A stretch of 64,000 nucleotides of DNA. It comes from Desulfurivibrionaceae bacterium. GTDB taxonomy: Bacteria > Desulfobacterota > Desulfobulbia > Desulfobulbales > UBA5123. Positions 20,583-54,497 of the stretch are shown here, in pieces. Both the position numbers and the translations under genes were made by a program. The stretch covers positions 473 to 64,472 of the forward strand of contig JAQYVW010000009.1 of NCBI GenBank assembly GCA_030145325.1, given 5' to 3'. Below the pieces are notes generated by a model that worked only from the letters and a program-made list of their open reading frames with translations, was not told where the DNA came from and made no database searches. Numbering within the stretch: position 1 is the stretch's first letter; each line of letters opens with the position of its first letter.

Positions 20583-22805
20583 TCAACGCAGAGTACCAAG
20601 GTAATTAAAGGTGGAGGGGCGCTGCCGGAGAGGTTTCCCGCCCTTACCTGCCGCCAAACCGGCAAGCTGTTCCAAATCCCCCTTCCGCAAACGCAGCAAG
20701 GAAACATCAACCACCCCGTAACGAATCCCCATCCCGGCCAACTCACTCTGCTTGCCCAACAAAGAAAAAACCTGATCGGCTACCGCCACGGTCTGCCCCC
20801 AGGCCTCCTTGAGCATAAATCCCTCCCCTTTGGGGCTAAGAAAAGGTCGATCATACTGGAAATGTCCCGCCTTGAGCCGGGCAATGAACAGTGGGATGGC
20901 CCCATAAATGGTCAACCCCGTTTCCACTCCCTTAGCGCCAGCAACCAGAGCAGCCAGATTGTCATGATCACTCTCAATGGAGCATTGCGCCTTACCGATG
21001 CCAAGCTCAGTAACACAACGTAAGGCCAGGGAGTTGAGAATATTGAGGGTATAATCGCCGTTGATGGACAAACGACGGCGACGCGGTGGCCGCTTTTTCT
21101 TCTTCCCCTTACTGACCCGCCGCACCGGCTCGCTCTGTAACAAACTCAACTGGCCAATGTGCCCAACCTGCCACTCAACAAAGCCACTGCGGGTCAACTC
21201 AGCAATGGTACGTCGATAAAAAGAGAGATCTTTTTCAAGAATAATTGGCGGCAAGGCCCAGACCAAGCGGCCCAAGACATCCTCCAAGCGGCGGCGTTGG
21301 TGCTTAAATTGACTCAATGATTCCGGGGTCAAGGTCACCACGATTCGCTCTGGAGATGCAGGCAAATGCTTCCGTAACAAGCTGAAATCACCGACCTTCA
21401 ACCACCACCGCAACACCCGGGCACCCTTGCCAACTGCCAGCGCTGCTGGCGGCGACTCAATTTCACCGGCTAACGAAGCAAATCCTTCGGCGCGCAAAGA
21501 GTCCAGCACCAAATGCATTTTTTTACGGATAGCCGGATCATCCGCCTCCTTGCGGAACAACTCCGGCCTCACCTGGTCATCCTTCATCCCCTCTGCTCGC
21601 CGCTCACAGCTATCCACCTTGTACAAACTATCGCCGGGAGTGGCGTTTTCCGGCAGCTCAATGGTAACTCCGGCCCCCACGGCGGCCTGATCAATCTCCC
21701 CCCCCTCACTGCGCATCTCCTTCAGGGTAAAAGCCAATCGTTCCCCACTCTTCTCCTGATGCAGTCGCAAGCGGTCACCACCACGAAGGGGTTCTTTCAA
21801 GACCAAGCGGGCCGACTTGCCACGGCTGGACTCAATGCGGCCAAGGAATAGGCCGATATTGCCGGAATGCTGCGGTGAGATAGCGTCCACCGGCTGGGGA
21901 GTAGTAAAATAACCACTGGTGGAACGCCGCCCCATGGCCTCACGCAATCTTTCATGGGCAACAGCCAAGGTTTTACGATCACCGGGCTGGGCATCAATGG
22001 CCAGCCGATAAGCGGCAGTCACCGCCCCCACATAACTGGCGCTGCGCATCCGCCCCTCGATTTTAAGGGAAGTCACCCCGGCCTCACGAAGTTGCGGGAT
22101 AAGATCGATTCCAGCCAGATCATTCATGGAAAACAGGTAGCCGGACTGGGCACCGCCTTTCCCCTTGCCACTCCAAGTATAACGACGTCGACAAGGTTGC
22201 ACACAGCGACCACGCAGGCCACTTTTCCCACCTTGGTAGCTACTGAACAGACACAACCCCGAATAACTAAAGCAGAGGGCGCCATGGATAAAAACTTCCA
22301 ACTCCACCTTGTTCTGCTGGTGGATATAGGCTATCTCCGGGAGGGTCATTTCTCGAGATAACACCACCCGCTGAAAGCCCATTTTGCTAAACTGCCGCAC
22401 CGCCACAGAATTATGCCCGGCCAACAGGGTACTGGCATGCAAGCGCAGGTTTGGGAAATATTTTCGGGCCAACCGATACAGTCCCAAATCTTGAAGGATT
22501 AAAGCGTCCACCCCCAGATGCTCCAAAGCGGCCAGGGTATGAGTGGCAGTGGGGATATCCTCTTCCTTCATCAGGCTGTTCATGGCCACATAGACCTTAA
22601 CCCCATGGCGGTGGGCATAGTCAACCATGGCCGCGATCTCAGCCATGACAAAATGCTTGGCCAGGGCGCGGGCATTGAGGGTCGGAGCGCCGATATAGAT
22701 AGCATCCGCCCCTGCCGCCACCGCAGCCTCAAAGGCTTCGAGAGTTCCGGCCGGAGCCAGCAATTCAAGGGGTTGATTGCTCTTTTCCGTTACCAAGGTC
22801 TTCAT
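20583..22805 (-). CDS. U32-family peptidase-like protein (long form)
   Basis: It has an N-terminal U32 TIM-barrel signature (LELLAPAG..E...AAV.AGADAIYIG; E.F.HGALC.SYSG.C) plus a long C-terminal extension. Confidence 0.8.
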   Translation of the reverse strand: MKTLVTEKSNQPLELLAPAGTLEAFEAAVAAGADAIYIGAPTLNARALAKHFVMAEIAAMVDYAHRHGVKVYVAMNSLMKEEDIPTATHTLAALEHLGVDALILQDLGLYRLARKYFPNLRLHASTLLAGHNSVAVRQFSKMGFQRVVLSREMTLPEIAYIHQQNKVELEVFIHGALCFSYSGLCLFSSYQGGKSGLRGRCVQPCRRRYTWSGKGKGGAQSGYLFSMNDLAGIDLIPQLREAGVTSLKIEGRMRSASYVGAVTAAYRLAIDAQPGDRKTLAVAHERLREAMGRRSTSGYFTTPQPVDAISPQHSGNIGLFLGRIESSRGKSARLVLKEPLRGGDRLRLHQEKSGERLAFTLKEMRSEGGEIDQAAVGAGVTIELPENATPGDSLYKVDSCERRAEGMKDDQVRPELFRKEADDPAIRKKMHLVLDSLRAEGFASLAGEIESPPAALAVGKGARVLRWWLKVGDFSLLRKHLPASPERIVVTLTPESLSQFKHQRRRLEDVLGRLVWALPPIILEKDLSFYRRTIAELTRSGFVEWQVGHIGQLSLLQSEPVRRVSKGKKKKRPPRRRRLSINGDYTLNILNSLALRCVTELGIGKAQCSIESDHDNLAALVAGAKGVETGLTIYGAIPLFIARLKAGHFQYDRPFLSPKGEGFMLKEAWGQTVAVADQVFSLLGKQSELAGMGIRYGVVDVSLLRLRKGDLEQLAGLAAGKGGKPLRQRPSTFNYLGTLR

Positions 22806-25795: not shown

Positions 25796-26410
25796 TTATT
25801 TGAAATAATCGTTACTGGCAACATCCACCTTGCCTAGCCAGGCGGCGATGGCGGTGTCATACTTGCTGGTGAGTTCGAAAACCTTGACACAGAGCTTGAA
25901 ACGGGTGGCCAGGGTGGTGTTTCCAGTTTCCTTAATCTCGGCTAAAACTTGCGGATAATCAGCCGGATCGACGATGACCGTGACATCATGAAAGTTCTTG
26001 GCCGCCGCCCTCAGCATGGTGGGGCCGCCGATATCGATGTTTTCGATGGCATCACCTAAGGTGCAGCTGGCATCGGCAGTGGCCTTATCAAAAGCGTAGA
26101 GATTAACCGCAATAATATCGATGGGCTGCAAACCATGCTGGGCCATCTGCTCTTGATGATCCTTGTTTTCACGCTGGGCAAGGATGCCGCCATGAACCTT
26201 GGGATGCAGGGTTTTCACCCGTCCATCCAACATCTCGGGAAAACCGGTGAACTGGGAAACATCGGTGACCTTAACGCCATGATCACGAAGTTTCTTGGCG
26301 GTGCCGCCGGTGGAAAGGATATCAATACCCAAGGCCTCAAGTTCCTTGGCAAAACCCTCAATGCCGGATTTATCGGTGAGACTGATCAACGCCCTGGTCA
26401 CTTTCTTCAT
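25796..26410 (-). CDS. Stand-alone IMP cyclohydrolase (PurH N-terminal MGS-like domain only)
   Basis: The 204-aa ORF ([11 protein letters not shown]...STGGTAK.L...[25 protein letters not shown]) matches the IMPCH half of PurH. The ORF ends where the AICAR transformylase half would begin. Confidence 0.8.
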
Positions 26411-28232: not shown

Positions 28233-30578
28233 TTGAGCGACACAAACCGTATCTATACCCTACCGGTTCTCCCCCTTAAGAATGCGGTGGTGTTTCCCTA
28301 CGTGGCAATGCCGATCTCGGTGGGAAGGCCCCAATCAATGGCCGCCTTGGAAGAAGCTCTGGCCGGACAAACGCAAACCGTACTGGTTTTAGCCCAGAAA
28401 AATACGTCAACAGAAAGCCCTACCCCCGCCGACCTATATTCCATCGGCACCATCGCGCAGATAAAACTTATCAGCCACATTGAGGCAATGATCCAGATTA
28501 TCCTCCAGGGGATAGAACGGGTAATCGTCACCAACTTCAGCCCCCCCCACCCTTATCTGGAAGCACAGGTAAAACCGCTGCCACTCCCCCATGGGGAAAG
28601 TATCGAGCAGGAAGCCCTGCAAAGGGAGGTGATAAATCTTACCGATAAATACTTTTCCCTTGCCCATCCGGAAGTACATCTAAATTTCCCCCCCGTCATT
28701 AACACCGGGGAAGACATCATGCAGCTCCTTTATCCTCTCGGCCAGTTGCTGCCCCTGGACACAGCCAATGCTCAGGCTCTGCTTGAATCAAAAGACCTCT
28801 TCACCACCCTGCATTTTTTGCGCGATTCCCTTCTCCACGAAATTCAGATCCACGAATTACGTCACCAGATTGCCGACCAGGCTGACAAAAAAATAAACCA
28901 CGAACAACGTGACTACATCCTGCGCCAGCAGATGCATGCCATCAAACAAGAACTTGGCGACAAAAATCCTAATGATACCGATATTGAAGAGCTTCGCAAA
29001 CAACTGGCAGAAGCCGGTTTACCCGATGAGGTACTGAAAGAGGCGGAAAGAGAACTGAAAAGACTGGAACAGATTCCCATGGCCGCCCCCGACTATCAGG
29101 TCACCCGAACCCATCTCGAGTTGATAAGCGAGTTACCCTGGCAACAGACAACCACCGACAACCTGAACCTTGACAACGCCCGACAGGTTCTCGACGACGA
29201 CCATTACGGCCTGCAGAAGATCAAGGAACGAATCATCGAACAACTGGCAGTAATGACTTTGAATCCAGACGCCAAGGCCCCCATCCTCTGCTTTGTCGGC
29301 CCGCCGGGGGTGGGCAAAACCTCGCTGGGACAATCCATCAGTCGCGCCTTAGGAAGAAAGTTTGAGCGATTCAGCCTGGGCGGCATGCATGACGAAGCAG
29401 AATTACGTGGACATCGCCGCACCTATATCGGCGCCATGCCTGGCCGGATTATCCAAGCCGTCCGCAGAACAGGGGTAAATAATCCACTGCTGATGCTGGA
29501 CGAGGTGGACAAACTCGGCCATGACTTCCGCGGTGACCCAGCAGCCGCGCTGATGGAAATTCTCGATCCCGCTCAGAACTTTGCTTTCCGCGACAACTAC
29601 CTTGACCTACCCTTTGACCTCTCCAAGGTTTTTTTCATTACCACCGCCAATGCCACTGACACAGTGCCGAAACCCCTTCTCGACCGCATGGAAATGCTGC
29701 CCCTCTCCGGCTACAGCGGTGAGGAAAAAATGGTCATTGCCCGCCGTTATCTGCTCCCTCGGCAGCGGCATGAAGCCGGGCTTAACGAAAACCAATTCAT
29801 GGTTCCGGACGAAACCCTTCTCTCCGTTATCCGCTATTACACCCGCGAAGCCGGGGTTCGAGAACTGGAACGAATGCTGGGAAAACTGGCCCGGAAGGTT
29901 GCCGTCCGTGTCGCCGAGGGCAACACAAACCCGGTAACCGTGACCCCGCCTGATCTTGCCGAAATGGTTGGCCCAGAACGATTCTTCGCTGAAAAAAGAC
30001 GCAAAGAGCTGCCCGCCGGGGTGGCCACCGGTCTCGCCTGGACAGATACTGGCGGTGATGTCCTTTATATCGAGGCCATCGCCTTGCCCGACGGTGAAAA
30101 ACTAACCATCACCGGCCACCTTGGTGAAGTAATGAAAGAATCAGCCATGGCTGCCAACAGTTATGTCACCGCCCATGTCCAGGACTTAGGCATCACTCTC
30201 CCCCTCCCACAGGCAATCCATATCCATGTCCCGGCCGGCGCCATCCCCAAGGACGGCCCTTCGGCCGGATCCACCATCGCCGCAGCCCTGACTTCACTCT
30301 ATACCCATCGCCCAACCCGAAGCGATACCGCCATGACCGGCGAGATAACCCTCAGCGGCCTGGTTCTGCCGGTGGGCGGGGTCAAAGAAAAGGTTCTCGC
30401 CGCCAGACGCGCCGGGATCAAGAGAATCATCCTCCCTGAAGAAAACAAAAACGATCTCCGCGACCTGCCTTCCCACGTCCGGGAAGAGATGGAGTTCATC
30501 ATGGTTCAGCGCATTGAAGATGTCTTACTGGCAGCCATTATCGCCCCGCCAGAGCTTCACAAGGAATGCCCATGCTAA
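28233..30578 (+). CDS. lon: ATP-dependent Lon protease
   Basis: It has a LON N-domain, an AAA+ Walker A (GPPGVGKTS) and a proteolytic Ser-Lys domain (PKDGPSAG..., ...[17 protein letters not shown]). It appears to use a TTG start. Confidence 0.95.
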
Positions 30579-33436
30579 AAAAGGACGGTGCCCCCAACAT
30601 CAAGAAATCAATTTTCTTTCCCCTGGCCATCGTTCTGCTCACCCTATCTATCCTCTCTCTATCCGGACTCTTCTGGCTCCAAGAAACCCATATCCATAAT
30701 CAGATCAGGCAAAAGTTAGACAGCGTCCCTAAACTTCTCGATGTACTGGTGGGTGAAGAAGAAACCATCATCAAGGGACTATTTGTCCGCTTTGAACACT
30801 CCCCTGAGCTACAAAAAGCTTTTCTTAACGGCGACCGGAAGCAATTATTAGCTTCATCCCGGCCAATCTTTAAAGAATTTCTGGCCGCTCACGACATAAC
30901 CCACTTTTATTTCATTGACCGAGAAGGAAGATGTTTTCTTCGCGTCCATAACCCCGACCGCGAGGGTGACACCATAAACCGATGGTCATTTAATACCGCC
31001 CGCCAGTCTCAAAAGATCTCATCCGGCATCGAACTGGGGCCGTTGGGCACCCTTACTCTGCGGGTAGTCGCTCCCTGGCGCGTCAACGACAAGATAATCG
31101 GCTACCTTGAACTGGGTAAAGAAACCACCCTGCTCCTCCCCATGCTTAAAGACGCCTTAAATGTAGAATTGCTCTTTGCCGTTCGCAAAAACTTATTGAA
31201 CCATGATCAATGGCAGGAAGGACGCCGGATGATGGGCTACAGCGACAACTGGGAGGAATTAAGCAATCATGTCATCATCGCCTCCACCCGCCCAGATACG
31301 CCCAGCGACATCGACCCTTTTCTCCAACAAGAACACACCAGCCATAACAATTTCATCATCAGCACAACCATGGGTGATCTCCACTACGATGGAGGATTCA
31401 TCTCCCTTAAGGAAAGTTCTGGCCGTGAGATCGGCGAGATAATCGTTCTTCTAAATTTTAACGCCGAACGTCTTACCCTGCGCCACCTTTACCTATCTCT
31501 GGCCTTAGTCATTCTTACGGCCGGAATTATCCTTTCGATCCTTTTTTACCATTATCTCAACGGCATTGACGCCAGACTGAGTCTGGCTAGCAATCGTCTC
31601 AAGGAAGAGTTGCAAGAGCGCAAACTCACCGAAAAAGCTCTGGCCAGAGCGAAAATAGCTGCCGAAACCGCCAATCGGGCCAAGAGTCAATTTCTCGCCA
31701 GTATGAGCCACGAAATCCGCACCCCCATGAACGGCATCATCGGCATGACCGATCTGGCTCTCGCCACCGACCTCCAACCAGAACAACGTCACTACCTTGC
31801 CATTGTCCAAAACTCGGCAACCTCGCTACTGGGAATTATCAATGACATCCTTGATTTTTCAAAGATTGAGGCCGGCCAGCTGGTTCTGAGCAAAGAACCT
31901 TTCGACCTCCTTGAGGTGATTGAAAACACCCTGCAAACCGTAGCCACCCGGGGCCAGCAGAAAGGACTGGAACTCCTCTATCACCTCTCGCCCGAAGTTC
32001 CGACTATCCTTCGCGGCGATGGGATGCGTCTCCGCCAAATTCTCCTTAATCTGGTGGGCAACGCCATCAAGTTCACCAATGACGGCTATATCTTAATCAA
32101 GGTGGAAACAACCCACGATAGCGAGCACAGAGTCTTACTCCACCTCTCCGTTACGGACACCGGCATCGGCATCCCGAAAAGCAAACAACTCAACATCTTC
32201 AACAGTTTCACTCAGGCTGATGACTCTATTGCCCGCCTATACGGCGGCACCGGCTTGGGTCTAAGTATCTGCTGCAAGTTGGCAGGAATGATGGACGGCG
32301 AACTCTGGGTTGACAGCAAGACGGACAAGGGCAGCACCTTTCATGTTTCCGCCCAATTCGACAAGATCAATAAGGCTGCAGAGGAGACCCCGGAACAAGC
32401 CGCCCCGCCAACGACCTCCACCATCCTGCTCATTGATAATCTTGAGCTCAGCCGCAAAATTCTCCAGGAATTTCTATGTCACCACCACCTGCCCACCGAT
32501 ACCGCGGCTGACAGCAAAACGGCCCTCAAGGCATTACAAGGAGAAGGCAATCAATACCAGATCATCTTAATCAATCTAGCCAATCAGGGAGAAGAGAGTC
32601 CAGGGATCCTTGATAGCCTGGCGGCAGCCAAATTCACCACCATCCCGCTCATTGTCATGAGCGCCGCCGAATCTCTTGATCAACAAAGACGCTATCCAAA
32701 CCTTGCCATTCACTGGGTCTTGCCTAAACCGGTGGCACGGCGCGATCTGATGACTTTAATCAAAGCCACCCTGTCCCCGGAGAACCATTCGCTGTTGCTA
32801 GCCCCCTCTTCTTCCCCAAACCTCGACATCATGACCACCACGAACTCGCCCCTCAACCTCCTACTGGTAGAAGATAATGAAATAAACCGAGAACTTGCCC
32901 AAATCGTCCTCAAACGAGGTGGGCATCGTGTCACCTCGGCGACTAACGGCGTGGAAGCATTGCAAGAACTTGCCAGCCATGGTTTCGATGCCATCCTGAT
33001 GGATATTCAGATGCCGAAAATGGACGGTTTAACGGCCAGCAGAATCATTCGCCAGTGTGAAAAAGGGGCAGTAGGGGAAGGAAAAGATTCCGCATTAATC
33101 AAGAGGGTACGCAGAAAGCTCAAGGGATCCAAGACCCCGATCATCGCCATGACCGCCCACGCCATGGCCGGTGCCCAGGATCAGTGCCTTGAGGCCGGAA
33201 TGGATCATTACGTCACCAAACCATTCCAAGCTCGAGAAGTGCTGGCCGTTTTACAGGAAGTAAGCAGTGGCAAAAAGCATATCCCCCCCCCAGAGTCTCG
33301 CCGTTGGCCGCATCGAGAAATGAACCACTTCCCACAGACAAACCCACCACCATCTCTCGCGCCAAGGTCAGAGAGCACATTAGTAACTCCTACCACATGG
33401 ACTCAAAAAAAATCAGCCATCTCCTGGATTCATTGA
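30566..33436 (+). CDS. Hybrid sensor histidine kinase (periplasmic PDC/Cache-like sensor, HisKA, HATPase, two receiver-like domains); its 3' end is probably frameshifted
   Basis: The H-box is [11 protein letters not shown], with N/G boxes ([15 protein letters not shown]). There is a degenerate first REC and a canonical second REC ([10 protein letters not shown]...DIQMPKMDG...TKP). The last ~48 codons after the C9 run at 33283-33291 read as low-complexity junk. Confidence 0.85.
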
Positions 33437-33669
33437 AAGAAAACCTCGAAGGATATCTTGTGGCCGCAGAAAAAGCGGCAGCCGAAAATGATCTCGACAG
33501 TTTGCGCCTCTCAATCCACAGCATCAAGGGCGTGTTGCTTAATCTCGGCCAGGAAGAGTGCGCCGCCTACCTGCTCACCATCGAAAAAGATGCTCAGGGC
33601 GAAAAAACAAACACCAATTACACAAAAATGCTGGCCGTCCTCCGCACCATCTTACGCCCACTACTCTAA
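33304..33669 (+). CDS. Hpt phosphotransfer domain ORF (probably the displaced C-terminus of the preceding hybrid kinase)
   Basis: It has the Hpt signature ([16 protein letters not shown]). The ORF-track start is TTG and the ORF overlaps the kinase ORF by 133 nt in another frame. Adding one C to the C9 tract fuses the two ORFs. Confidence 0.75.
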
Positions 33670-33786: not shown

Positions 33787-33820
33787 GGGGGAGCACCACC
33801 TCAACCCGGCGATGCTCCCC
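33787..33820. terminator. Bidirectional Rho-independent terminator between convergent genes
   Basis: GGGGAGCA (33787-33794) pairs with TGCTCCCC (33813-33820). It is flanked by an A-run on the left and a T-rich stretch on the right, so either strand sees a stem followed by a U-run. Confidence 0.65.
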
Positions 33821-33851: not shown

Positions 33852-34592
33852 CTAGCGACGATCACCCATCAGCCGCAAGAGGCTCAAAAACAGATTGATG
33901 AAATCAAGATAGAGAGCCAACGCACCCATGATCGCACCCTTACGGATAACAGCCTCACCGCCGTTCATAATCCCGCTGCCACCGATGCGTTGGATCTTCT
34001 GGACATCGTAAGCAGTCAGGCCGGTGAAGACCACCACCCCAATAGCGGAGATCACCCAAGACATCATGGAACTGCCGATGAAGATATTGACCACCGAGGC
34101 AATAACCATCCCGATGAGCCCCATGAAGAGAAAGGAACCCATACCAGTAAGATCCTTTTTGGTAACGGTGCCGTAAACAGCCATGGTCGCAAACATGCCG
34201 CCAGCGACAAAAAAGGTGCTGGCCACCGAGGTGGCGGTGTACATGAGCAGAATGGCGGAAAGGGTCGCGCCGTTCAATACCGAATAAGCGATGAAAAGAC
34301 CGGTGGCGGCCTGGGCGGAAATCTTCTCAATACGGGCGGAAAGGTAAAGAACCATCCCCAGTTCACCGAAGATCAACCCATAAAAAACGATCCGGTTACC
34401 GAAGATCATCTGCTGGGCAGCGGAGGAGTTAAAAACCAAAAAGGCGGTAAAACCAGTCAACCCAAGACCGATGGCCATCCAATTAAAAACCTTGGCGAGA
34501 AACATGGTCGAGGCTTCGATATTAGCCCCGCTCAACGCCGTTTGTTGCTTTCCTTGAAATTGGTACATGTTCTTTCCCTCCTGAGAAATCAA
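33852..34592 (-). CDS. Bax inhibitor-1 / YccA family membrane protein
   Basis: It has seven hydrophobic segments and a family-typical N-terminus (...FLAKVFNWMAIGLGLTG) and C-terminus (LALYLDFINLFL.LLR). Confidence 0.8.
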   Translation of the reverse strand: MISQEGKNMYQFQGKQQTALSGANIEASTMFLAKVFNWMAIGLGLTGFTAFLVFNSSAAQQMIFGNRIVFYGLIFGELGMVLYLSARIEKISAQAATGLFIAYSVLNGATLSAILLMYTATSVASTFFVAGGMFATMAVYGTVTKKDLTGMGSFLFMGLIGMVIASVVNIFIGSSMMSWVISAIGVVVFTGLTAYDVQKIQRIGGSGIMNGGEAVIRKGAIMGALALYLDFINLFLSLLRLMGDRR

Positions 34593-38279: not shown

Positions 38280-39572
38280 ATGCAGCCAAAAGATATCAAA
38301 CCAATCATTAAACCATTTTCTATCCCGGAAAAGTCAGATTTCGACATCCTCATTGTCGACGATGAATTCGTTAACCGGTTCCTGCTTAAGGATATTCTGG
38401 AACAGGACGGTTATCGAACCCACGAGGCAAACAATGGCACCGAGGCCCTTGCCGCTGCCATCAACAACAAAACGGATCTGATTCTGATGGATATCATGAT
38501 GCCGGACATGGATGGCTATGAAACCTGCCGACGGTTGAAGGAAGACCCGTGCACCGCCAACATCCCGGTTATCTTCGTTACCGCCCTCACCGATACTGAA
38601 AATTTGGTCAAGGGATTCTCCGTCGGCGCTGAAGACTACCTGGGCAAACCAATTAAGGACGGTGAGGTAAAGGCCAGGGTGCAAACACACCTGAAACTGA
38701 AAGCCGCCATGGACAAGATCTCTCACTATAATGAAGAACTGGAACAGGTGGTGGCGGAAAGCTCCAAAGAGTTGATCCGCACTGAACGGCAAGCCGCCTT
38801 TGGACAACTCATCCAGGGAATCGTCCATAATCTCAAAGGACCGCTGACCACCATTCGGGGCAGTGCCCAGGCCTGCCGGGCCACGCTGCGGATGATTCGT
38901 ACCGAAATAGACGAGGCCGGAGAAACTCCCTTGCCCGACAACCCCAAAATCACCAAACTTACTGACGGGGCAATAAAGGCCATTGATCTTTCCGAAACCG
39001 CTTCCACTCGCCTCACGGAAATGATCAACTCACTGATGTCAAAAAGCAGCGCCGACCAGGCCAGCAAGCCGGAACGTCTTGACTTAAATACCATTGTCCG
39101 CTCGGAACTGAACTTCATGGAAGGTGATCTGCATTTCAAACACCATATCAAAAAGAATATCGAACTAACCCCTTCTCCGCTCCCGATCATGGCCATTGCC
39201 CCGGAAATAGCCCAGGTTTTCAATAATATAATCGGCAACGCCATTGATGCCATGCATGGCAATGTTGACCAGGCAATATCCATCTCCACAACGAAAAAAA
39301 ACCGGTATGCCAGTCTGTCGATTTCCGATACCGGCAACGGCATTGCCCCTGATAACCTTAACCGAATCTTCGACCCCTTTTTCACCACCAAACCGAAACA
39401 CAACAACGATACACCTCAAAAAAAGGGACCAATCGGCACCGGCTTAGGCCTTTACATGTGTATGCGATCAATAAAAACTATTAATGGCGACATTGTGGTT
39501 GAAAGTAAACCTGGCTCAGGCACGACCTTCAAAATTAAAATACCGCTGGCCGAGCCCATAGATATTTCGTGA
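38280..39572 (+). CDS. Receiver-histidine kinase fusion (REC-HisKA-HATPase)
   Basis: The N-terminal REC contains ILIVDDE...DIMMPDMDG...GKP. The H-box is IVHNLKGPL, followed by N/G boxes (IGNAIDAM, DTGNGI, GTGLGL). It is the first gene of the chemosensory cluster. Confidence 0.85.
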   Translation: MQPKDIKPIIKPFSIPEKSDFDILIVDDEFVNRFLLKDILEQDGYRTHEANNGTEALAAAINNKTDLILMDIMMPDMDGYETCRRLKEDPCTANIPVIFVTALTDTENLVKGFSVGAEDYLGKPIKDGEVKARVQTHLKLKAAMDKISHYNEELEQVVAESSKELIRTERQAAFGQLIQGIVHNLKGPLTTIRGSAQACRATLRMIRTEIDEAGETPLPDNPKITKLTDGAIKAIDLSETASTRLTEMINSLMSKSSADQASKPERLDLNTIVRSELNFMEGDLHFKHHIKKNIELTPSPLPIMAIAPEIAQVFNNIIGNAIDAMHGNVDQAISISTTKKNRYASLSISDTGNGIAPDNLNRIFDPFFTTKPKHNNDTPQKKGPIGTGLGLYMCMRSIKTINGDIVVESKPGSGTTFKIKIPLAEPIDIS

Positions 39573-39651
39573 CCGGCAACGACGAAGATAAATAATTAAA
39601 AAGCAACTACTCACGGGGGCATGGCTAATTCTCCCAATATGAGCGTAATTT

Positions 39652-39758
39652 TAACTGTTTGCAGGGTGCCGGAGATGAAAGGCATCGTTCTGCGAAACAT
39701 ACATTGGTATGTGAGCAGGGCGATAACGCGGCAGATTCGGTACCCTGTGAGCAGTTAC
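39652..39758 (+). repeat. Family-A intergenic inverted-repeat element, copy 3 (minimal 107-nt form)
   Basis: TAACTGTTTGCAGGGTGCCG (39652-39671) pairs with CGGTACCCTGTGAGCAGTTA (39738-39757) over 20 bp. All four non-Watson-Crick pairs are G-T on the + strand. There is also an internal ACATAC/GTATGT hairpin. Confidence 0.75.
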
Positions 39759-39793
39759 ATTAAAAAAATTCACCTCGGGACAAAGAGGAGCAG

Positions 39794-40225
39794 ATGATGG
39801 CTGAGAAACGCAAGAAATACAAAATACTGATCGTCGATGATGATCAAAACATCCTGAACATGCTGGATCTGGCGTTCATTAATACGTCCTACGATATCAC
39901 CACCATCGATCACCCCTTACACGCTTACAAAATGATCGAAAACGAACATTACGACATGGTGATCAGCGATATCCAGATGCCACAGATGGACGGCCTGACC
40001 CTGCTCCGCAAGATCAAAAACTTTAACGGTATGATCCAGGTTGTGATGATGACCGCCCACATTTCCATCAGCAACACCCTGGACGCCTTTCGCTACGGCG
40101 CGGTGGATATATTTTTTAAACCGTTCGCGGATATCAATGAAATCATTCTCGCCGCCGACGGGGTGGCTGCAAAACTGGACAGGGTAAACAACATCTTACG
40201 CCAGCTAACCGATGGAGACAGATAA
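39794..40225 (+). CDS. Single-domain CheY-like response regulator
   Basis: It is a 143-aa REC domain (ILIVDDD...DIQMPQMDG...FKP). Its stop codon is 3 nt before the start of CheA-1. Confidence 0.85.
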   Translation: MMAEKRKKYKILIVDDDQNILNMLDLAFINTSYDITTIDHPLHAYKMIENEHYDMVISDIQMPQMDGLTLLRKIKNFNGMIQVVMMTAHISISNTLDAFRYGAVDIFFKPFADINEIILAADGVAAKLDRVNNILRQLTDGDR

Positions 40226-40228
40226 GCC

Positions 40229-42553
40229 ATGAGCAGCGAAATGGATCTTGATGCCCTGCATGGCTTTCTCGATGAGTCAAGCGACTCCATGCAAGGCATT
40301 GAAGCAGACTTTATCGATCTCGAAAGAGATCCGACCAATATGGAGATCATCAACCGGATATTCCGCCCCATTCACAGCCTGAAAGGGAACTCCGGCTTCT
40401 TCGGCCTAACCAACATCAACAAATTCGCCCACCGCTTGGAAAACCTTCTCGACACCGTCAGACGAGGTGAACTTGCGATCACCAAAGAGATCATCGACAC
40501 CCTTCTCATCGGTGCAGATTTTCTTCGCCAAATGGTGGAACGGGTCTATGAGGACCCCACCGACGTCCTTTTGCGTGACAACGAAGAAGAGTTTTTAGGC
40601 AAGGTCGAACAATTCAAACCGGAAAAACCAACCGGCTCAATTGAGAGCATCCTGACCCTTGAAAAACTCGTCAACGAGGCGATGGATCACGGCATCTCCC
40701 CCACGGACAACACGTTAATCAGTACCCTGCTGGGAAAAATCGAAAAAGCCAACCAAGAAATCAAGCTCATCCTCAGTGACGTCAAAAACGCCGACTCCAC
40801 TGCCAAGCGATCCACCGCCGCCGCTTATATGATTGGTGATGAGGATCACTCCGCAGTGGTCAAACCGCTGCTTGATGTTGCAAGCCAAATGGACAAAAGA
40901 GCAACGGTTGACCGCCAACTCCTAGCTGAGTTCGAAAAATCCCTGGTCACCCTGAACGAGCTTCTTAAAGACGACAGTGACGCCGCCCATGAGTTAGAAG
41001 AACTGCAATCCATGAGCAACTTTCTTGACGATGAATTACTCATCACCAGCCAAGAATTCACCTCATCGACCACAGCATCCATTGATGCCGTTCTGAGCAA
41101 ATTCGACATCGTCAAAACCGAAAGCAAAGATATCGAAGCTGAATCATTTGGCAAGCTCGGAGAAATCCTTATCTCCCAAGACAAGGTCTCACCGGAACAA
41201 CTCACCGATGCGCTTAAAAAACAGAAGAAAGTTGGTGAAATACTGGTGGACGATGGCATTCTCAAGGACCAAGACCTCAAGGAAGCATTAACCATCCAGC
41301 AAAAAAATGCCTTGGCAGAGCATACCAAAAATGAACCTGTTGCTCGCGAAGTTAAAAAAACCATCCGTATCGATCAAGACAAGCTGGACAGTTTTGCCAA
41401 CTTCGTCGGCGAGCTGTTTATCAATATCGATTCTTTCAGCTTCCTGAAAAAGCAATTGGAAGAAACCGACGTCGACTTTGACCTCATGGCCCGCTTCACC
41501 AATACCATCACCTCCCTTGACGAGATGGTGGACACCCTGCAAGAAAGCATCATGGGGATCAGAAAGGTGCCCATCGACACCCTATTCAAACGCTTCCCCC
41601 GCGTAATCCGCCAACTAGCAGGCTCACTGAACAAGGATATCAACTTCAAAATCGTTGGCGAAGATACCGTCATCGACAAAGATCTGCTGGAAAAAATCGA
41701 GAATCCACTGGTCCATATGCTGCGAAATTCGGTGGATCATGGCATCGAAACGCCCGAAGAACGAACCAACAACAACAAGTCTGGCACCGGCACCTTGGAA
41801 CTGAAAGCGGCGGTGGATGAAAATTATGTTTATATCACCATCAACGATGACGGTAAGGGCATTGACCCGCAGATCATCAAGAAAGTGGCGCTGAAGAAAG
41901 AGCTCATCACCCCGGAAGAAGCTGAACAGATGCCAGACAAGGAGTTGATCAACCTCATCTTCAAACCGGGCTTCAGTTTAGCCGAAAAAATCAGCGATGT
42001 CTCAGGACGCGGCGTCGGCATGGATGTGGTGCAGTCGGTATTAAAAGAAACCAGCGGCACGGTGGAGGTAAACTCGGTAATTGACCAAGGCACTAAGGTT
42101 ACGATTAAGATTCCGTTAACCAAAACCCTGGTTGCCAAGGAGGCAATGATTGTTTCCGCTTATGAGCGAACACTGGCCATCCCCTCCGAGGATATTACCG
42201 CCACCATTGAAGCTAAGGACGAGGAAGCAACAAGACTTTTTTCCGGCGACAATTGTATCCAATACCACGGCGCGATTTATCAAGTCATCGATCTTGGCGC
42301 TTTCCTATTCCCCAAAACCATCCGCCAGCGACAAGATGCAGACCGGCATGTTATTATTGTCAGTGAAAAACATAACATCGCCCTATTAGTTGACGAAGTA
42401 TTGAGCCACCAAAAAATTGTCGTCAAAAACTTCACCGGCGGGTACAAAGCTTTAGACAGGGTCCGAGGCATCAACGGCTTTACAATCTTGGGTAACGAGG
42501 ATATTATCCTCATTGCCGATGTACAAAATATTACCGCCCACGCTGTTGATTAA
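40229..42553 (+). CDS. cheA: CheA-type histidine kinase 1 (Hpt, MshEN-like motif pair, dimerisation, HATPase, CheW-like)
   Basis: It has Hpt (FRPIHSLKGNSGFFGL), a P3 region (IRIDQDKLDSFANFVGEL), a kinase core (HMLRNSVDHGIE, DDGKGID, GRGVGMDVV) and a C-terminal CheW-like domain. The LGEILI.../VGEILV... tandem motif lies at aa 309-358. Confidence 0.9.
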   Translation: MSSEMDLDALHGFLDESSDSMQGIEADFIDLERDPTNMEIINRIFRPIHSLKGNSGFFGLTNINKFAHRLENLLDTVRRGELAITKEIIDTLLIGADFLRQMVERVYEDPTDVLLRDNEEEFLGKVEQFKPEKPTGSIESILTLEKLVNEAMDHGISPTDNTLISTLLGKIEKANQEIKLILSDVKNADSTAKRSTAAAYMIGDEDHSAVVKPLLDVASQMDKRATVDRQLLAEFEKSLVTLNELLKDDSDAAHELEELQSMSNFLDDELLITSQEFTSSTTASIDAVLSKFDIVKTESKDIEAESFGKLGEILISQDKVSPEQLTDALKKQKKVGEILVDDGILKDQDLKEALTIQQKNALAEHTKNEPVAREVKKTIRIDQDKLDSFANFVGELFINIDSFSFLKKQLEETDVDFDLMARFTNTITSLDEMVDTLQESIMGIRKVPIDTLFKRFPRVIRQLAGSLNKDINFKIVGEDTVIDKDLLEKIENPLVHMLRNSVDHGIETPEERTNNNKSGTGTLELKAAVDENYVYITINDDGKGIDPQIIKKVALKKELITPEEAEQMPDKELINLIFKPGFSLAEKISDVSGRGVGMDVVQSVLKETSGTVEVNSVIDQGTKVTIKIPLTKTLVAKEAMIVSAYERTLAIPSEDITATIEAKDEEATRLFSGDNCIQYHGAIYQVIDLGAFLFPKTIRQRQDADRHVIIVSEKHNIALLVDEVLSHQKIVVKNFTGGYKALDRVRGINGFTILGNEDIILIADVQNITAHAVD

Positions 42554-42733
42554 AGTCAAGGCGACAACACTCAACGGTTATGTTAAATACTTAAACACCT
42601 CTGACACTCATAACACGATGTGTTGCGAGCAACCGAAACAAAGAACTTCGCAATACTTATTTACGAAATAAACAAACCGGATCAGCACATTATAACCAAG
42701 ATCCTCCAGTAAACATATTCACCAGGCCATTTC

Positions 42734-44047
42734 ATGGGAACAATGGAATCAGATATTTTCAAGGAAGAAGCTTATGATCTTCTTGATGATATAGAAGAAG
42801 CACTCCTTGAATTACGTGACAACCCCGCTGACAGCGAACTAATTAACCGCCTATTCCGCGCCTTTCATACCATCAAGGGATCGGGGGCCATGTTCGGCTT
42901 CAAAGAGGTGTCAAAATTCACCCATGAGGTGGAAACCGCCATCGACAAAATCCGCGAAGGGACCGGGGTGGTGCCGGACGCACTGCGCGAAGTCCTTCTC
43001 ACCGCTCGCGACCAGATCCTCGCCATGATCGAGACGGAAGACCCTGACGCCCCAGAGATTCAGGAAGCGGCACAACTCATCCTCAAGCAACTGGCGCCTG
43101 CTGTCTCAGCAAAAGAAGCGCCACCCGTACAGCAGCCCCCCACCCCCAAGCCTGAACCTGCCGCCGCCCCGCCCGTTATTGCCACGGAAATGCCGACAGT
43201 CCCAAAAACAGAGCCCAAAATCAATAAAGATCCGGACCCTGAAACGCAAGCGCTGCTAACCGAACTTGCAGAACTACTCAATGAAGTTCGAGACTTGTTA
43301 CAAAAACTGCACGAAGAACCCGGCGCCAATAAACTTTGCAAAAAGCTCCACCGATCAATTCATACCGTTGCCGGCACAGCGGCCATGTATGACATGGAAG
43401 CCCTTGCCGAATTCAGCAACAAACTTACCGATATCACTGCCACCATCAAACAAGCTGAAGAACCAGTCAATGATGAAGTGTTAAAAGTACTCACCGCAGC
43501 TATCGACCACTGCTTTTCCCTTCTCCGTTCCACCGACCCATCGGGGCAGGTTCTACAAAGACGCTCAGGCAAAATTACCACCGAACTTGAAGCAATGGTC
43601 AACAAAGACCAAACCAGTATCGGAACAGCGCCGGAAACTTTACGATTCCTTATTGTTGAAGACGAATTCATTAGCCGTTACCTTCTCCAAGAATTCCTGA
43701 CTCCATACGGTAATAGCCATGTTGCCATAGACGGTTACGAGGCTGTCTTGGCTTTTAAAAACGCCATTATCGAAAAGAAACCATACAATATCGTCTGTCT
43801 CGATATCATGATGCCGGGACTTGATGGTCGACAAGTGGCCAAAGAAATTCGCCGCCTGGAAAAAGAAATGGGCAACAACAATTTCTGCAAGATAGTAATG
43901 ACCACGGCTTTAGACGACGAAAGCATCAAGAACGAGTTATTGTCAGATAAACGGTGTGATGCCTATCTGACCAAACCCATACGATTTGAAGACCTTGACC
44001 AATTAATAAAATCATACTTTCCAGACTTCAATACGACAAATAGCTAA
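42734..44047 (+). CDS. Hpt-Hpt-REC phosphorelay protein
   Basis: It has two Hpt signatures (FRAFHTIKGSGAMFGF; HRSIHTVAGTAAMYDM) separated by a Pro-rich linker. A C-terminal receiver follows (FLIVEDEF...DIMMPGLDG...TKP). Confidence 0.85.
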   Translation: MGTMESDIFKEEAYDLLDDIEEALLELRDNPADSELINRLFRAFHTIKGSGAMFGFKEVSKFTHEVETAIDKIREGTGVVPDALREVLLTARDQILAMIETEDPDAPEIQEAAQLILKQLAPAVSAKEAPPVQQPPTPKPEPAAAPPVIATEMPTVPKTEPKINKDPDPETQALLTELAELLNEVRDLLQKLHEEPGANKLCKKLHRSIHTVAGTAAMYDMEALAEFSNKLTDITATIKQAEEPVNDEVLKVLTAAIDHCFSLLRSTDPSGQVLQRRSGKITTELEAMVNKDQTSIGTAPETLRFLIVEDEFISRYLLQEFLTPYGNSHVAIDGYEAVLAFKNAIIEKKPYNIVCLDIMMPGLDGRQVAKEIRRLEKEMGNNNFCKIVMTTALDDESIKNELLSDKRCDAYLTKPIRFEDLDQLIKSYFPDFNTTNS

Positions 44048-44190
44048 CAATCACGACAACCTTTAAGGTAGCCAAAGAATTAACATGTTATAGACTTCCA
44101 AATCAATTACCATACCAGTAAGAGCTACCATTCCAATTAGTATTGATATCAGCAAGCATCGCTGACAAAAATGGCAAAAGGTGAACAAAC

Positions 44191-46500
44191 ATGTCCGACA
44201 AGCTGACGGATGAACAAGTAGAGATCATTGAAGAGTTCATTTGTGAAGTCCGCGACCTGATAGAGACTGCGGAGTCCGATATAATCGGTTTATCCTCCAT
44301 TTACAAAAACAATGAGTCCCAAACCTCAACCGAAAACCTAAAAACTCTTCACACCATCTTTCGTTGCTTCCATTCCATCAAGGGTGGCGCAGCCTTCCTG
44401 CAGTTCAACAATATGGTCACTTGCGCGCACAGCGCGGAAAATCTTCTCGATCTACTCCGAAATGATGAAATAACCCTTCTGCCAGGGCATATCGATCTGC
44501 TCTGCCAAGCCTGCGACTTCATCTCGATTGCTCTGGAACAACTTGAAACCAACCTCAATGATCACGAGCTCACAGAGCAAGCTAACGCCATCCACGATAA
44601 ATTTGAACGCGCCATCGCTGGTATCCCAGAACCGGAAGAATCCCCATCTGAGAACGAAAGCAATGACGACAGTTTATTAATCAATCTTGACCTCAACCCT
44701 TCTCAACTTATCAACCCGGACACACTTCACCATTTCATCGAGGAGTCCAGGGAACTTATTCAGAAAAGCGAAGCGGCTTTACTTGACTGGAGCAAAAACC
44801 CTAACGACTCCGACCCAGAACTAGTTGCGCAACTTTTTCGCAACATTCACAGCATTAAAGGCAACAGCGGTTTTCTCGGATTCTCCGACATGGAGCGCTT
44901 GGCCCACGGGATGGAGAACCTCCTTGATGCTGCCAGAGAAGGCGCCGCCATTAACCGCGGCAAAGCAGCAGAGACCCTCTTGGGGCTTGTAGACATAATC
45001 AGTCATGCCATGGAAGATATCGCCCAGGGAGAAGAATGTAAAATCAAAGGCATAGGCCTTCATCTCGAGGCATTGGCTGATCTTCTCCCCGACACCCCTT
45101 CCTCCAATGTACCGTTACCAAAACTTGGTGAAATTCTTGTCGATCAAGGCGTTGTCAGTGAAGACGCCCTGGAAAATGCCTTGGATGTCCAGAATAAACC
45201 TCTCGGTGAAATCCTGGTCGAAACCGGCGCAGCCACAGAAGAGCAAGTCGCGCAGGCCGTGCAAACTCAGAAGAAACAAGCAATCGTCCCAGGCAAGGCC
45301 ACAAAAACAACCGCTCGTCAGGACATCCGAGTTGACCTCGGCAAACTTGACAGTCTCATCAACCTCATCGGCGAAATGGTTATTGCTGAAAATATGTTGA
45401 TCAACAACCCTGATCTGCAAGATCTGGAATTGGAAAATTTCAACAAAGCCGGCCAGCACATGGACAAAATCATCCGTGAATTACAGGAAATGGCCATGTT
45501 TATCCGCATGGTGCCGGTGGCAGGCCTCTTTCGGCGCATGACCCGGCTGGTACATGATCTTTCCCGAAAATCCGGCAAAAAAGTTGACCTGCAACTGGTT
45601 GGAGAGACCACCGAGGTCGACAAAACGGTTATCGAATTAATTACTGACCCCCTGGTTCACCTTCTTCGCAACTCCATGGATCACGGCCTTGAGCCCCCAG
45701 AGGAACGCTTGCAAGCAGGCAAAAAAGATACCGGGATTCTACGTTTGTCCGCAACCCATGAAGAAGGCGAAGTCCTGATCACCATCACCGATGATGGGCG
45801 GGGGTTGAACAGAGAAAAAATCATCGCTAAAGCCATGGAAAAAGGTGTCCTTGACGATGATGGATCTCAGATGAGCGATTCAGATGTCTTTAACCTCATT
45901 TTCCTGCCCGGCTTTTCCACCGCCGACCAGGTTACCGATGTTTCTGGTCGCGGTGTTGGGATGGATGTGGTTCGCAAGAACCTTGAAAAGATCAAGGGCA
46001 AAATTGAAATTAAGAGCAAGCAAGGGGGCGGCACCACCATTATCTTGCGCATTCCGCTGACCCTGGCAATCATCGACGGGATGATGATCCGGGTGGGCAC
46101 TGCGCTATACATCGTGCCGCTTCTCTCAATCCGCGAATCATTCCGTCCCAGCCACGAATTGATTACCGTTTCTCCAGATGGTCAAGAACTGGCCAAGGTA
46201 CGCGAGAACCTGCTGCCGGTGGTGAGACTCCACGATCTTCACAAAATCAGCCCAGACTTCGATGAACTAGACAAAGGTATCCTCATTGTCCTTGAAGGCC
46301 AGGATCTTAATTTTTGCCTTTTTGTCGACGAAATCATGGGTCAGCAACAGACGGTTATCAAAGGTCTATCAGAATACATCTCCGTACTTGGCAATGTCGG
46401 CGGTGTTTCCGGCTGCACCATTCTCGGCAATGGCGATGTCTGCCTGATCCTTGATGTACATTCATTGGTGGATGTCGCTCTCAGCGATAACGAAGAGTGA
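44191..46500 (+). CDS. cheA: CheA-type histidine kinase 2 (two Hpt domains, MshEN-like motif pair, dimerisation, HATPase, CheW-like)
   Basis: It has Hpt1 (FRCFHSIKGGAAFLQF), Hpt2 (FRNIHSIKGNSGFLGF), a P3 region (IRVDLGKLDSLINLIGEM), a kinase core (HLLRNSMDHGLE, DDGRGL, GRGVGMDVV) and a CheW-like C-terminus. The tandem LGEILV motif lies at aa 311-360. Confidence 0.9.
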   Translation: MSDKLTDEQVEIIEEFICEVRDLIETAESDIIGLSSIYKNNESQTSTENLKTLHTIFRCFHSIKGGAAFLQFNNMVTCAHSAENLLDLLRNDEITLLPGHIDLLCQACDFISIALEQLETNLNDHELTEQANAIHDKFERAIAGIPEPEESPSENESNDDSLLINLDLNPSQLINPDTLHHFIEESRELIQKSEAALLDWSKNPNDSDPELVAQLFRNIHSIKGNSGFLGFSDMERLAHGMENLLDAAREGAAINRGKAAETLLGLVDIISHAMEDIAQGEECKIKGIGLHLEALADLLPDTPSSNVPLPKLGEILVDQGVVSEDALENALDVQNKPLGEILVETGAATEEQVAQAVQTQKKQAIVPGKATKTTARQDIRVDLGKLDSLINLIGEMVIAENMLINNPDLQDLELENFNKAGQHMDKIIRELQEMAMFIRMVPVAGLFRRMTRLVHDLSRKSGKKVDLQLVGETTEVDKTVIELITDPLVHLLRNSMDHGLEPPEERLQAGKKDTGILRLSATHEEGEVLITITDDGRGLNREKIIAKAMEKGVLDDDGSQMSDSDVFNLIFLPGFSTADQVTDVSGRGVGMDVVRKNLEKIKGKIEIKSKQGGGTTIILRIPLTLAIIDGMMIRVGTALYIVPLLSIRESFRPSHELITVSPDGQELAKVRENLLPVVRLHDLHKISPDFDELDKGILIVLEGQDLNFCLFVDEIMGQQQTVIKGLSEYISVLGNVGGVSGCTILGNGDVCLILDVHSLVDVALSDNEE

Positions 46501-46668
46501 TTCACCCGCATCGCACGTCCCTCCCCGCCCTCCACACTACAAAGCTGTAAACATCCCACGACTTTGTTAACAATTACGTAACACTCACCCCACACCTTTC
46601 TCGCTCGCCCCTTCACCCTACGTATAAAAAGTTCCTAATTACAACACAATGAGATGGCTGTTCCAGCC

Positions 46669-46685
46669 TGGCACATTTCGTGCAT
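46669..46685 (+). promoter_or_regulatory. Putative sigma-54 (-24/-12) promoter for MCP-1
   Basis: The sequence is TGGCACATTTCGTGCAT. GG and GC are separated by exactly 10 nt, as in the TGGCAC-N5-TTGCW consensus. It lies about 110 nt upstream of the MCP-1 ATG. Confidence 0.55.
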
Positions 46686-46794
46686 TTCCTTCTCAAGTTC
46701 GAGGAAGATGCTCAATCACCTTCACTGGTCTAAAAAATGGCATCGTCAAAACAAAAAAGCCATTACCGGCCTTTCATTTTATGGAGAACTATTA

Positions 46795-49737: not shown

Positions 49738-49762
49738 TCGCTATAATAGCGAATGTTTCCAA

Positions 49763-49797
49763 ATGGCGTCCCTAGGTTCAGGGACGCCATTTTTTTT
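49763..49797 (+). terminator. Rho-independent terminator after MCP-1
   Basis: ATGGCGTCCCT pairs with AGGGACGCCAT in an 11-bp stem with a 6-nt loop, followed by T7. Confidence 0.85.
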
Positions 49798-49931
49798 AAT
49801 TTTTTTCTATCAAATAACTACCCAAAAGCGTTCAACAAAAGTGTACACATCTATTCAATTTTGTTGAACATTCACCTTACGCCTAACAATGCACATATGC
49901 ACAACACCTTTAAATCATTGTAAAAAATAAT

Positions 49932-49960
49932 TTGACAGCTTTACAACAGTTACTGATAAT
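49932..49960 (+). promoter_or_regulatory. Putative sigma-70-type promoter of cheW-mcp cassette 1
   Basis: TTGACA (49932-49937), a 17-nt spacer, then GATAAT (49955-49960). The block is conserved in cassette 2. Confidence 0.55.
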
Positions 49961-50095
49961 AAAAATCCTAGGCATTCTCAGTTGGTAATATCATAAAACA
50001 CTGCCCCTTAACCCCATTTCCAAAAGACTCCTTTGGCAACCTCACTTTCGCAACAGGAATTGCTAAAATAGAGCATTTTAACAAGGAGAGAAGCT

Positions 50096-50602
50096 ATGGC
50101 TGAAGATCAAGTTGTCGACATGGAGGATGATCTCTACGACGACGAAGACACCATGAAGGACAAGTACCTCACCTTCCATCTGGCCGGTGAGGATTACGGC
50201 CTTGACATCGTTTTTGTCACCGAGATCATCGGCATCCAGAAAATCACCGAAGTGCCGGACATGCCTAACTTTGTTAAGGGGGTAATCAACCTACGCGGCA
50301 AGGTAATCCCGGTGATGGACGTACGGTTACGTTTCAACTTGCAGGAACGTGATTACGACGAACGCACCTGTATCGTAGTCGTTGATATTAACGGCACCGC
50401 CGTCGGCCTTGTTGTTGATCAGGTCAACGAGGTGGCCGATATCCCCGAGGCACAGGTCGAGCCGCCCCCACGCACCACCAAGGGGACGACCAGCCGCTTC
50501 TTAAAGGGCATGGGCAAGGTGGATGAAGAAGTCCGCATCCTGCTCAATGTCGACAAGCTGCTCTACGACGAAGAAATGGAAATGCTTGCTGGTGCGGCGT
50601 AA
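50096..50602 (+). CDS. cheW: CheW coupling protein (copy 1)
   Basis: It is a 168-aa canonical CheW domain with an acidic N-terminal extension (MAEDQVVDMEDDLYDDED). Confidence 0.9.
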   Translation: MAEDQVVDMEDDLYDDEDTMKDKYLTFHLAGEDYGLDIVFVTEIIGIQKITEVPDMPNFVKGVINLRGKVIPVMDVRLRFNLQERDYDERTCIVVVDINGTAVGLVVDQVNEVADIPEAQVEPPPRTTKGTTSRFLKGMGKVDEEVRILLNVDKLLYDEEMEMLAGAA

Positions 50603-50648
50603 TCTTTCCTGAGAAAAAATCACAACATAACAAATAACGAGGTGAACA

Positions 50649-53588: not shown

Positions 53589-53611
53589 CAACGTAAAAAT
53601 ATCATAAAAAA

Positions 53612-53650
53612 ATGGCGTCCCTGGTTTTCCCAGGTGACGCCATTTTTTTT
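53612..53650 (+). terminator. Rho-independent terminator after MCP-2
   Basis: ATGGCGTCCCTGG pairs with CCAGGTGACGCCAT (one bulge), followed by T8. It is homologous to the MCP-1 terminator. Confidence 0.85.
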
Positions 53651-53780
53651 ACTATTTCTATCGACCTACCACAAGAAGGCAGTTCAACAGATTTGAACAT
53701 ATGTTCTCAGTTTTGTTTAACATTTCACAAGACCTAACCACAAGCACACCCACACCTTCAACATAATTACAAAAAATAAT

Positions 53781-53810
53781 TTGACACCTTCATGTACGTC
53801 TGCTGATAAT
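53781..53810 (+). promoter_or_regulatory. Putative sigma-70-type promoter of cheW-mcp cassette 2
   Basis: TTGACA (53781-53786), a 17-18-nt spacer, then (T)GATAAT. It is a paralogous copy of the 49932 promoter block. Confidence 0.55.
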
Positions 53811-54451: not shown

Positions 54452-54497
54452 TCAATCGCCACAACAACACTTTATAAAACTAAAATGAGGTATTCAT

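Follow-up and report, generated by a model that had tools for sequence, protein, structure and literature searches.

Does a hybrid sensor kinase whose phosphotransfer domain lies in another reading frame represent a split phosphorelay, a switch or simply one broken gene? This question is raised by a locus found in a 64,000-nucleotide (nt) window of a Desulfurivibrionaceae bacterium (contig JAQYVW010000009.1, assembly GCA_030145325.1), where the open reading frame (ORF) of a histidine kinase (HK) with two receiver domains (REC1 and REC2), directly downstream of lon, is separated by a run of nine cytosines (C9) from the histidine phosphotransfer (Hpt) domain that follows it. By comparing this locus with its orthologues, we found that the two parts almost certainly descend from one ancestral fused gene, whose break at the tract appears, from the sequences compared, to be lineage-specific and unconserved. 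This much is common to all the explanations that we considered. As to the origin of the break, we tentatively favour a real, recent and incidental slipped-strand contraction of a hypermutable tract in the sampled population.

A homopolymer at the frame break of a hybrid kinase

The C9 homopolymer lies exactly at 33283-33291 of the window (Table 1), in the context TAT CCCCCCCCC AGAG, and the kinase frame reads across it as CAT ATC CCC CCC CCA GAG. Beyond the tract this frame continues for 47 sense codons before a TGA stop. The Hpt frame corresponds to the kinase frame -1 and is open from 33193 to its stop at 33667-33669, hence through the tract. Adding one C joins the two frames, and removing two C does so as well at the cost of one proline, the in-register lengths thus being C10 or C7, with C9 in the deposited sequence. 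Consequently, the HK-REC-REC-Hpt modules do not sit on one polypeptide as deposited, and they do so after the addition of one C. A first-pass annotation, made from the letters of this stretch, had described a C9 tract cutting the Hpt from the kinase, a kinase frame continuing for 48 implausible codons, an Hpt frame open through the tract and a conventional HK-REC-REC-Hpt protein upon addition of one C. Each of these statements agrees with our analysis, the 48 codons being the 47 sense codons and the stop. A second slippage-prone tract, an A8 run at 33405-33412 (D-S-K-K-I), is found 114 nt past C9 inside the Hpt coding sequence, and is in frame.

The kinase ORF opens at 30566. However, the true start is probably ATG 30572, since the predicted product P0001, both orthologue alignments described below and the tblastn match all begin there. 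With Pfam, we identified in this ORF a dCache_3 domain (amino acids (aa) 60-215) followed by a transmembrane (TM) segment, a HisKA domain (E = 1.4e-22, aa 372-437, H-box SHEIRTP), a HATPase_c domain (E = 4.5e-26, aa 484-597) and a Response_reg domain (E = 6e-34). The latter is REC2 (aa 766 to about 890), which bears the phospho-acceptor Asp in its AILMDIQMP motif. At the acceptor position of REC1 (aa about 620-740; window about 32429-32785) there is an Asn instead (IILINL vs AILMDI in REC2), as there is in the orthologues (MILANL). Since Asn replaces the acceptor Asp, REC1 reads as a conserved pseudo-receiver sitting between the kinase core and the true receiver, a point absent from the first-pass annotation.

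In the downstream frame, Pfam detected an Hpt domain (26.2 bits vs a gathering cutoff of 24.6) with the HxxKG motif (IHSIKG). An AlphaFold (AF2) model of the C-terminal 178 aa shows five helices, with pLDDT values of 75-89 for residues 76-174. A fold search of this Hpt model against the PDB gave among its best matches HptB (7c1i), the Hpt of a Shewanella hybrid kinase (3myf), ZmHP2 (1wn0), ArcB (1fr0) and BarA (3iqt), all with weak E-values (>=0.07). A profile search of PDB sequences with the Hpt segment returned only a weak match to HptB (E = 0.25). Together, these assignments predict that the repaired protein is a membrane hybrid sensor kinase with the order dCache_3-TM-HisKA-HATPase_c-pseudoREC-REC-Pro-rich linker-Hpt. 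It resembles kinases of the ArcB/BarA/TorS/EvgS type in the order HisKA-HATPase_c-REC-Hpt and in the HxxKG histidine, with ArcB, BarA and the Shewanella protein among the structural matches cited above. It differs from them in its dCache_3 sensor, in the additional Asn pseudo-receiver and in having the Hpt out of frame as deposited.

One fused protein in the orthologues

We searched 5.8 billion proteins for orthologues. Besides P0001, which is the window's own truncated kinase product (954 aa, 100% identical), we found two full-coverage orthologues, P0002 (1034 aa, 62% identity) and P0003 (1033 aa, 63%), both with a C-terminal Pfam Hpt, and a third variant, P0123 (1033 aa), which is also a single fused protein. 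Thus all three orthologue loci found encode one fused HK-REC-REC-Hpt protein of 1033-1034 aa. In the orthologue loci L001, L002 and L083, the stop of lon overlaps the kinase start by 7 nt, as it does in the window. Since the lon-kinase arrangement is common to the window and the orthologue contigs, these kinases are positional orthologues.

The alignments place the break precisely. First, tblastn of P0003 matched its residues 1-911 at 30572-33292 and its residues 909-1033 at 33283-33666 in the other frame, the two high-scoring segment pairs meeting on the C tract, so that the frame switch falls at 33283-33292. Second, the stretch that begins at the MDGL motif of REC2 and runs to the C-terminus measures 216 aa in the repaired protein and in both orthologues. 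Third, the linker past the tract aligns with the orthologues only in the -1 frame (R-x-S..P..A...LP..P..IS), and the 47-aa tail of the kinase frame gave no alignment to the orthologues. By using a codon-usage likelihood trained on the other genes of the window, we obtained scores per codon of +0.10/+0.31 for the Hpt frame after the tract vs -0.30/-0.14 for the kinase frame.

The tract itself is not shared. In the orthologue DNA, the equivalent linker prolines are encoded by CCG CCG or CCG CCG CCG, with no homopolymer there and the gene unbroken. Since the orthologues use CCG CCG, the C tract is lineage-specific. As a separate observation, L001 (about 5690-5700) and L002 each have an in-frame C7 run of their own, CTCCCCCCCGGG (L-P-P-G), some 60 nt downstream of the site that corresponds to the window tract; the Pro-rich linkers of this kinase family repeatedly give rise to C runs.

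Other searches added little to this set. A scan of genome contigs with an alignment of the REC end plus Hpt returned at least 80 unrelated hybrid kinases (27-36% identity over long matches, up to 75% on short receiver-only segments), the patterns being generic receiver peptides; the orthologues and the source genome were not among the matches listed. A scan of metagenome contigs with an Hpt-only alignment and degenerate patterns recovered, among the matches listed, only the L001 contig (as L084). A word-index search with a 145-aa junction and Hpt query found P0121, the 90-aa Hpt protein called in the window, alone and no same-species fragments, in a search that is not exhaustive since it missed P0002 and P0003.

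The Hpt segment showed no sign of decay in identity, gaps, stops or codon usage. Over 105 ungapped residues it is 68-71% identical to the orthologues, vs 62-63% for the whole protein, it has no stops and it keeps the HxxKG motif. Therefore, the break must be very recent, functionally bypassed (leaky) or absent from the organism.

Origin of the frame break

The explanation that we tentatively favour can be laid out as follows. The ancestral fused hybrid kinase would have been co-transcribed with lon, its three linker prolines spelled as an unbroken poly-C. A slipped-strand contraction from C10 to C9 would then have put the Hpt out of register, and the C9 allele would encode an HK-REC-REC protein that ends in 47 aa of nonsense sequence and to which the Hpt is no longer covalently linked. 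Such a kinase would be expected to autophosphorylate and to pass the phosphate to its own REC2, without an Hpt to hand it on. The output of the phosphorelay (from His to Asp, to the His of Hpt and on to a response regulator) would be uncoupled, the pathway being either off or left with REC2 as a phosphate sink. Gain of one C (or loss of two) would restore the relay, and -1 ribosomal slippage on C_CCC_CCC could supply a trace of full-length protein. The unorthodox-kinase architecture known from ArcB, BvgS and similar proteins underlies these signalling expectations. A tract of C9-C10 is intrinsically far more mutable than the C6 tract that already suffices for observable phase variation in bvgS (PMC1891110), which we counted in favour of a real variant. 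Also, selection may be weak on one of many sensor kinases, and the window alone carries several.

Several points weigh against this explanation. It rests on one deposited sequence, so there is room for a miscall at the longest G/C run of the window, and an intact, well-conserved Hpt is equally predicted by an artefact. Moreover, homology-validated frameshifts that are singletons of one lineage are expected to be mostly sequencing errors (Antonov et al., PMC3711429). The strongest competitor is indeed a sequencing or assembly miscall, in which the consensus dropped one C and the kinase of the organism itself, with a tract of C10 (or C7), is intact at about 1032-1034 aa; we regard it as a serious possibility, if a somewhat less probable one. 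In its favour, the break falls in the longest in-ORF homopolymer, the Hpt is undecayed, and one added C brings the stretch from MDGL to the end to the length seen in both orthologues. The locus also resembles the singleton frameshifts of the GeneTack survey, with a frame transition in one genome and intact homologues elsewhere.

The rest of the window differs from what such errors would lead one to expect. Among its 45 homopolymers of at least 7 bases, 26 are in ORFs. C9 is the longest of these 26, and of all 45 it alone shows a frame-break signature. None of the 25 others in ORFs disturbs the frame, three C8/G8 runs and three A8 runs included, and we saw no further split gene in the 64 kb while annotating about 30 ORFs. 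With 25 of 25 other in-ORF runs in frame, homopolymers are not a general source of error in this assembly, and a systematic homopolymer error becomes less probable. Because no homopolymer errors are seen elsewhere in the assembly, we consider a real variant at least as likely as a miscall. Our analysis narrows the three causes proposed by the first-pass annotation (an artefact, a fixed frameshift or a contingency tract).

Could the tract be maintained as a switch? BvgS is an unorthodox HK-REC-Hpt kinase. In Bordetella pertussis, a one-C change in a poly-C tract of bvgS (C6/C7) truncates the sensor kinase and causes phase variation (PMC1891110). The two cases are alike in having a C homopolymer inside the coding region of a sensor kinase, where a one-C change frameshifts and truncates the protein. 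They differ in that both alleles and their switching were observed experimentally for bvgS, compared with a single sequence here, and in that the window tract is longer (9), lies about 88% of the way along the gene, in the REC-Hpt linker, costs only the Hpt and is absent from the orthologues. An evolved switch of the bvgS type, in which the tract would be maintained since one-C changes toggle Hpt attachment and kinase output within the population, seems unlikely to us. As in contingency loci, C9 is a long mononucleotide tract within a coding sequence that sets the reading frame; a G/C run of 9-10 exceeds accepted phase-variable lengths (bvgS C6/C7; PMC1891110), the tract is located in a dispensable interdomain linker where a shift costs the output domain only, and the run-breaking synonymous Pro codons used by the orthologues are unused here. 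However, neither conservation of the tract in related lineages nor an excess of such tracts in the window was found: the orthologues have CCG CCG, and C8 words occur 5 times vs 6.6 +/- 3.3 expected from dinucleotide-preserving shuffles, which indicates no enrichment of mutable tracts. The tract by itself is no statistical anomaly; what is not random is its coincidence with the frame break. CCC is the commonest Pro codon in + strand genes (184/531), so that an uninterrupted run of C at prolines can come from drift, and three prolines as CCC CCC CCC are occasionally expected from codon usage alone. As a more general feature of the window, GC skew (-0.04 to -0.20) and AT skew (+0.05 to +0.23) keep their signs in every 4-kb bin from 1 to 64000, whatever the gene orientation; the many C and A runs on the + strand are in part due to this strand being C- and A-rich.

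A bolder version, which we hold to be equally improbable, is that the tract works as a switch in a free-living, Desulfobulbaceae-like bacterium, where one-C slips would toggle the Hpt on the lon-linked kinase and -1 slippage on C_CCC_CCC, at an EF-P-dependent Pro-Pro-Pro stall, would let the 'off' allele supply some full-length kinase at all times, at a low and constant level. If true, this would be a domain-level phase variation of phosphorelay wiring, not a whole-gene ON/OFF switch.

Programmed recoding is far less probable. On this account C9 would be normal, HK-REC-REC being made by standard decoding and HK-REC-REC-Hpt by -1 frameshifting or by RNA polymerase adding one C. The Hpt frame is exactly -1, and the kinase frame contains two overlapping slippery heptamers of the X_XXZ_ZZN type, C_CCC_CCC (33283-33289) and C_CCC_CCA (33286-33292), in the right register for a -1 shift; that the shift needed equals a -1 ribosomal slip on C_CCC_CCC is the second point that we add to the first-pass annotation. 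A +1 slippage at CCC-C was rejected, the +1 frame (read by eye) stopping after 12 codons and not being the Hpt frame. In E. coli, the motifs that shift efficiently by -1 with the help of a stimulator include C_CC.C_CC.C, and unstimulated shifting on C_CC.C_CC.A lies above 0.1% (PMC4066793). Also, a selection experiment revealed low-level bypass of frameshifting indels in G and C repeats (PMC3812077). On the other hand, -1 shifting without stimulators reaches at most about 10x a 0.055% background (PMC4066793), and we found no stimulator here. The 69 nt downstream of the tract have a folding energy of -7.4 kcal/mol (z = +0.78), a value that 164 of 200 shuffles reach, the wider 191-nt context gives no structure signal (z = 0.03), the tract region has no Rfam match, and no Shine-Dalgarno-like element precedes the tract. 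The orthologues are all in frame and lack both the heptamer and the tract. As for the polymerase, transcriptional insertions in homopolymers of E. coli and Buchnera were all in A/T runs and none in G/C (PMC5574713). Sites of transcriptional slippage are homopolymers of at least about 8 nt, mostly of A or T. With 9 nt the tract attains this length, but it consists of C, and the genomes of E. coli and Buchnera contain few long G/C runs, so those data are an indirect comparison. The site resembles the -1 frameshifting of dnaX and IS3/IS911 in its heptamers in register, in the -1 shift and in a common N-terminus with an alternative C-terminal domain; it differs from them in having no downstream hairpin or pseudoknot, no upstream Shine-Dalgarno-like stimulator and no conservation. 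Thus, a trace of full-length protein from the C9 allele is plausible, and a programmed, conserved recoding site at the tract is not supported.

We give just as little credence to a stable split, that is a three-component relay with a free Hpt translated from TTG 33304, from ATG 33397 or via coupling at the TTGA of 33433-33436. In an exhaustive profile search, stand-alone members of the same Hpt subfamily proved to be common (103-133 aa, starting just before helix 1), and the gene caller did predict the 90-aa P0121. The best sequence and fold match of the Hpt segment is the stand-alone HptB of P. aeruginosa (7c1i). Translation of such proteins begins at a start of their own, immediately before helix 1, in contrast to this locus, where no start is credible. 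TTG 33304 is the only in-frame start that keeps the whole Hpt, and neither it nor ATG 33397 is preceded by a Shine-Dalgarno, vs 24 of 43 ORF starts in the window that are positive in the same crude test. ATG 33397 and later starts remove helix 1 or more, which natural stand-alone homologues keep. TTG 33433, in the Hpt frame, overlaps the kinase-frame stop in a layout that recalls ATGA coupling; this is probably a coincidence, since only a 78-aa shortened Hpt would result. Among the orthologues, we found no case of two genes in which the start of the Hpt and the tail of the kinase are conserved: all are fused, the tail is unmatched, their linker to the Hpt still aligns with that of the window past the tract, and in the window no Shine-Dalgarno accompanies the starts that keep the N-terminal helices. 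A split relay is biochemically plausible, yet nothing at the locus indicates that one evolved. Finally, an unrelated small Hpt gene standing by chance beside the kinase is ruled out by synteny, by the linker alignment and by the abutting tblastn segment pairs.

Genomic neighbourhood and implications

Table 1. Position of the features discussed, in window coordinates
Feature	Position	Strand	Remarks
Kinase ORF before tract end	30566..33291	+	start 30566, or ATG 30572 by orthologue alignment; full ORF ends at 33436
C9 homopolymer	33283..33291	+	frame-break site; CCC CCC CCA in kinase frame (Pro-Pro-Pro), REC-Hpt linker
Out-of-frame kinase tail	33292..33436	+	codons from 33293: 47 sense, TGA at 33434-33436; ends ...SWIH*
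Linker and Hpt, -1 frame	33292..33669	+	phospho-accepting His of HSIKG at 33517-33519; Pfam Hpt, orthologue identity
TTG start candidate	33304..33306	+	only in-frame start keeping the whole Hpt (121 aa); 13 nt past tract; no Shine-Dalgarno
Called separate Hpt protein P0121, 90 aa	33397..33669	+	first in-frame ATG; lacks helix 1; no Shine-Dalgarno
lon protease gene	28233..30578	+	directly upstream; stop overlaps kinase start (7 nt for ATG 30572)
Terminator-like GC-rich hairpin between an A run and a T run	33788..33820		closes the lon-kinase unit; faces the convergent Bax1-I gene
C8 runs in intact genes	21698-21705, 28541-28548, 57842-57849		U32 peptidase, lon, TPP enzyme (G8 on coding strand for two)

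Downstream of the kinase, L001 and L083 carry HSP20 and a second lon, where the window instead has a convergent gene of the Bax1-I family (33852-34592, - strand) and an AI-2E transporter gene. The kinase may be a proteostasis-linked sensor.

Further signalling genes are grouped in a chemosensory cluster at 38280-56678, which encodes a REC-HisKA-HATPase protein, a CheY-like REC, two CheA proteins, an Hpt-REC protein, three HAMP-MCP proteins and two CheW+MCP pairs. Both CheA proteins have the order Hpt-dimerisation-HATPase-CheW, and the second of them and the Hpt-REC protein have two Hpt stretches each. The CheW+MCP pairs are tandem paralogues (50096-53588 and 53945-56678).

Elsewhere in the window, a split purH had been suspected at 25796-26410 (- strand) and was rejected, its neighbours being purN and a phosphoribosyltransferase gene. 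Its 203-aa product, encoded next to purN, comprises an MGS-like domain, matches the AICARFT/IMPCHase profile over no more than the first 59 positions of the latter, and looks like a short PurH of the IMP-cyclohydrolase (MGS/IMPCH) type, not like the product of a broken gene.

Taking our observations together, we read the locus as a recent slip by one base or as a miscall in the assembly; it does not present a new arrangement of genes. The called 954-aa kinase and 90-aa Hpt therefore belong together in annotation, as a single frameshifted hybrid kinase, a pseudogene or a low-quality protein, and should not be entered as a novel split phosphorelay. The present evidence supports an ordinary homopolymer indel and nothing beyond. 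That a homopolymer can frameshift a hybrid sensor kinase is already known from bvgS, the minor twist here being that the output domain alone is detached, and an assembly error may be equally possible. If the C9 length is real and variable, the locus would be a rare non-pathogen example of a two-component sensor switched by a homopolymer, with the output domain alone being removed, and it would bear on how signalling diversifies within populations of environmental bacteria.

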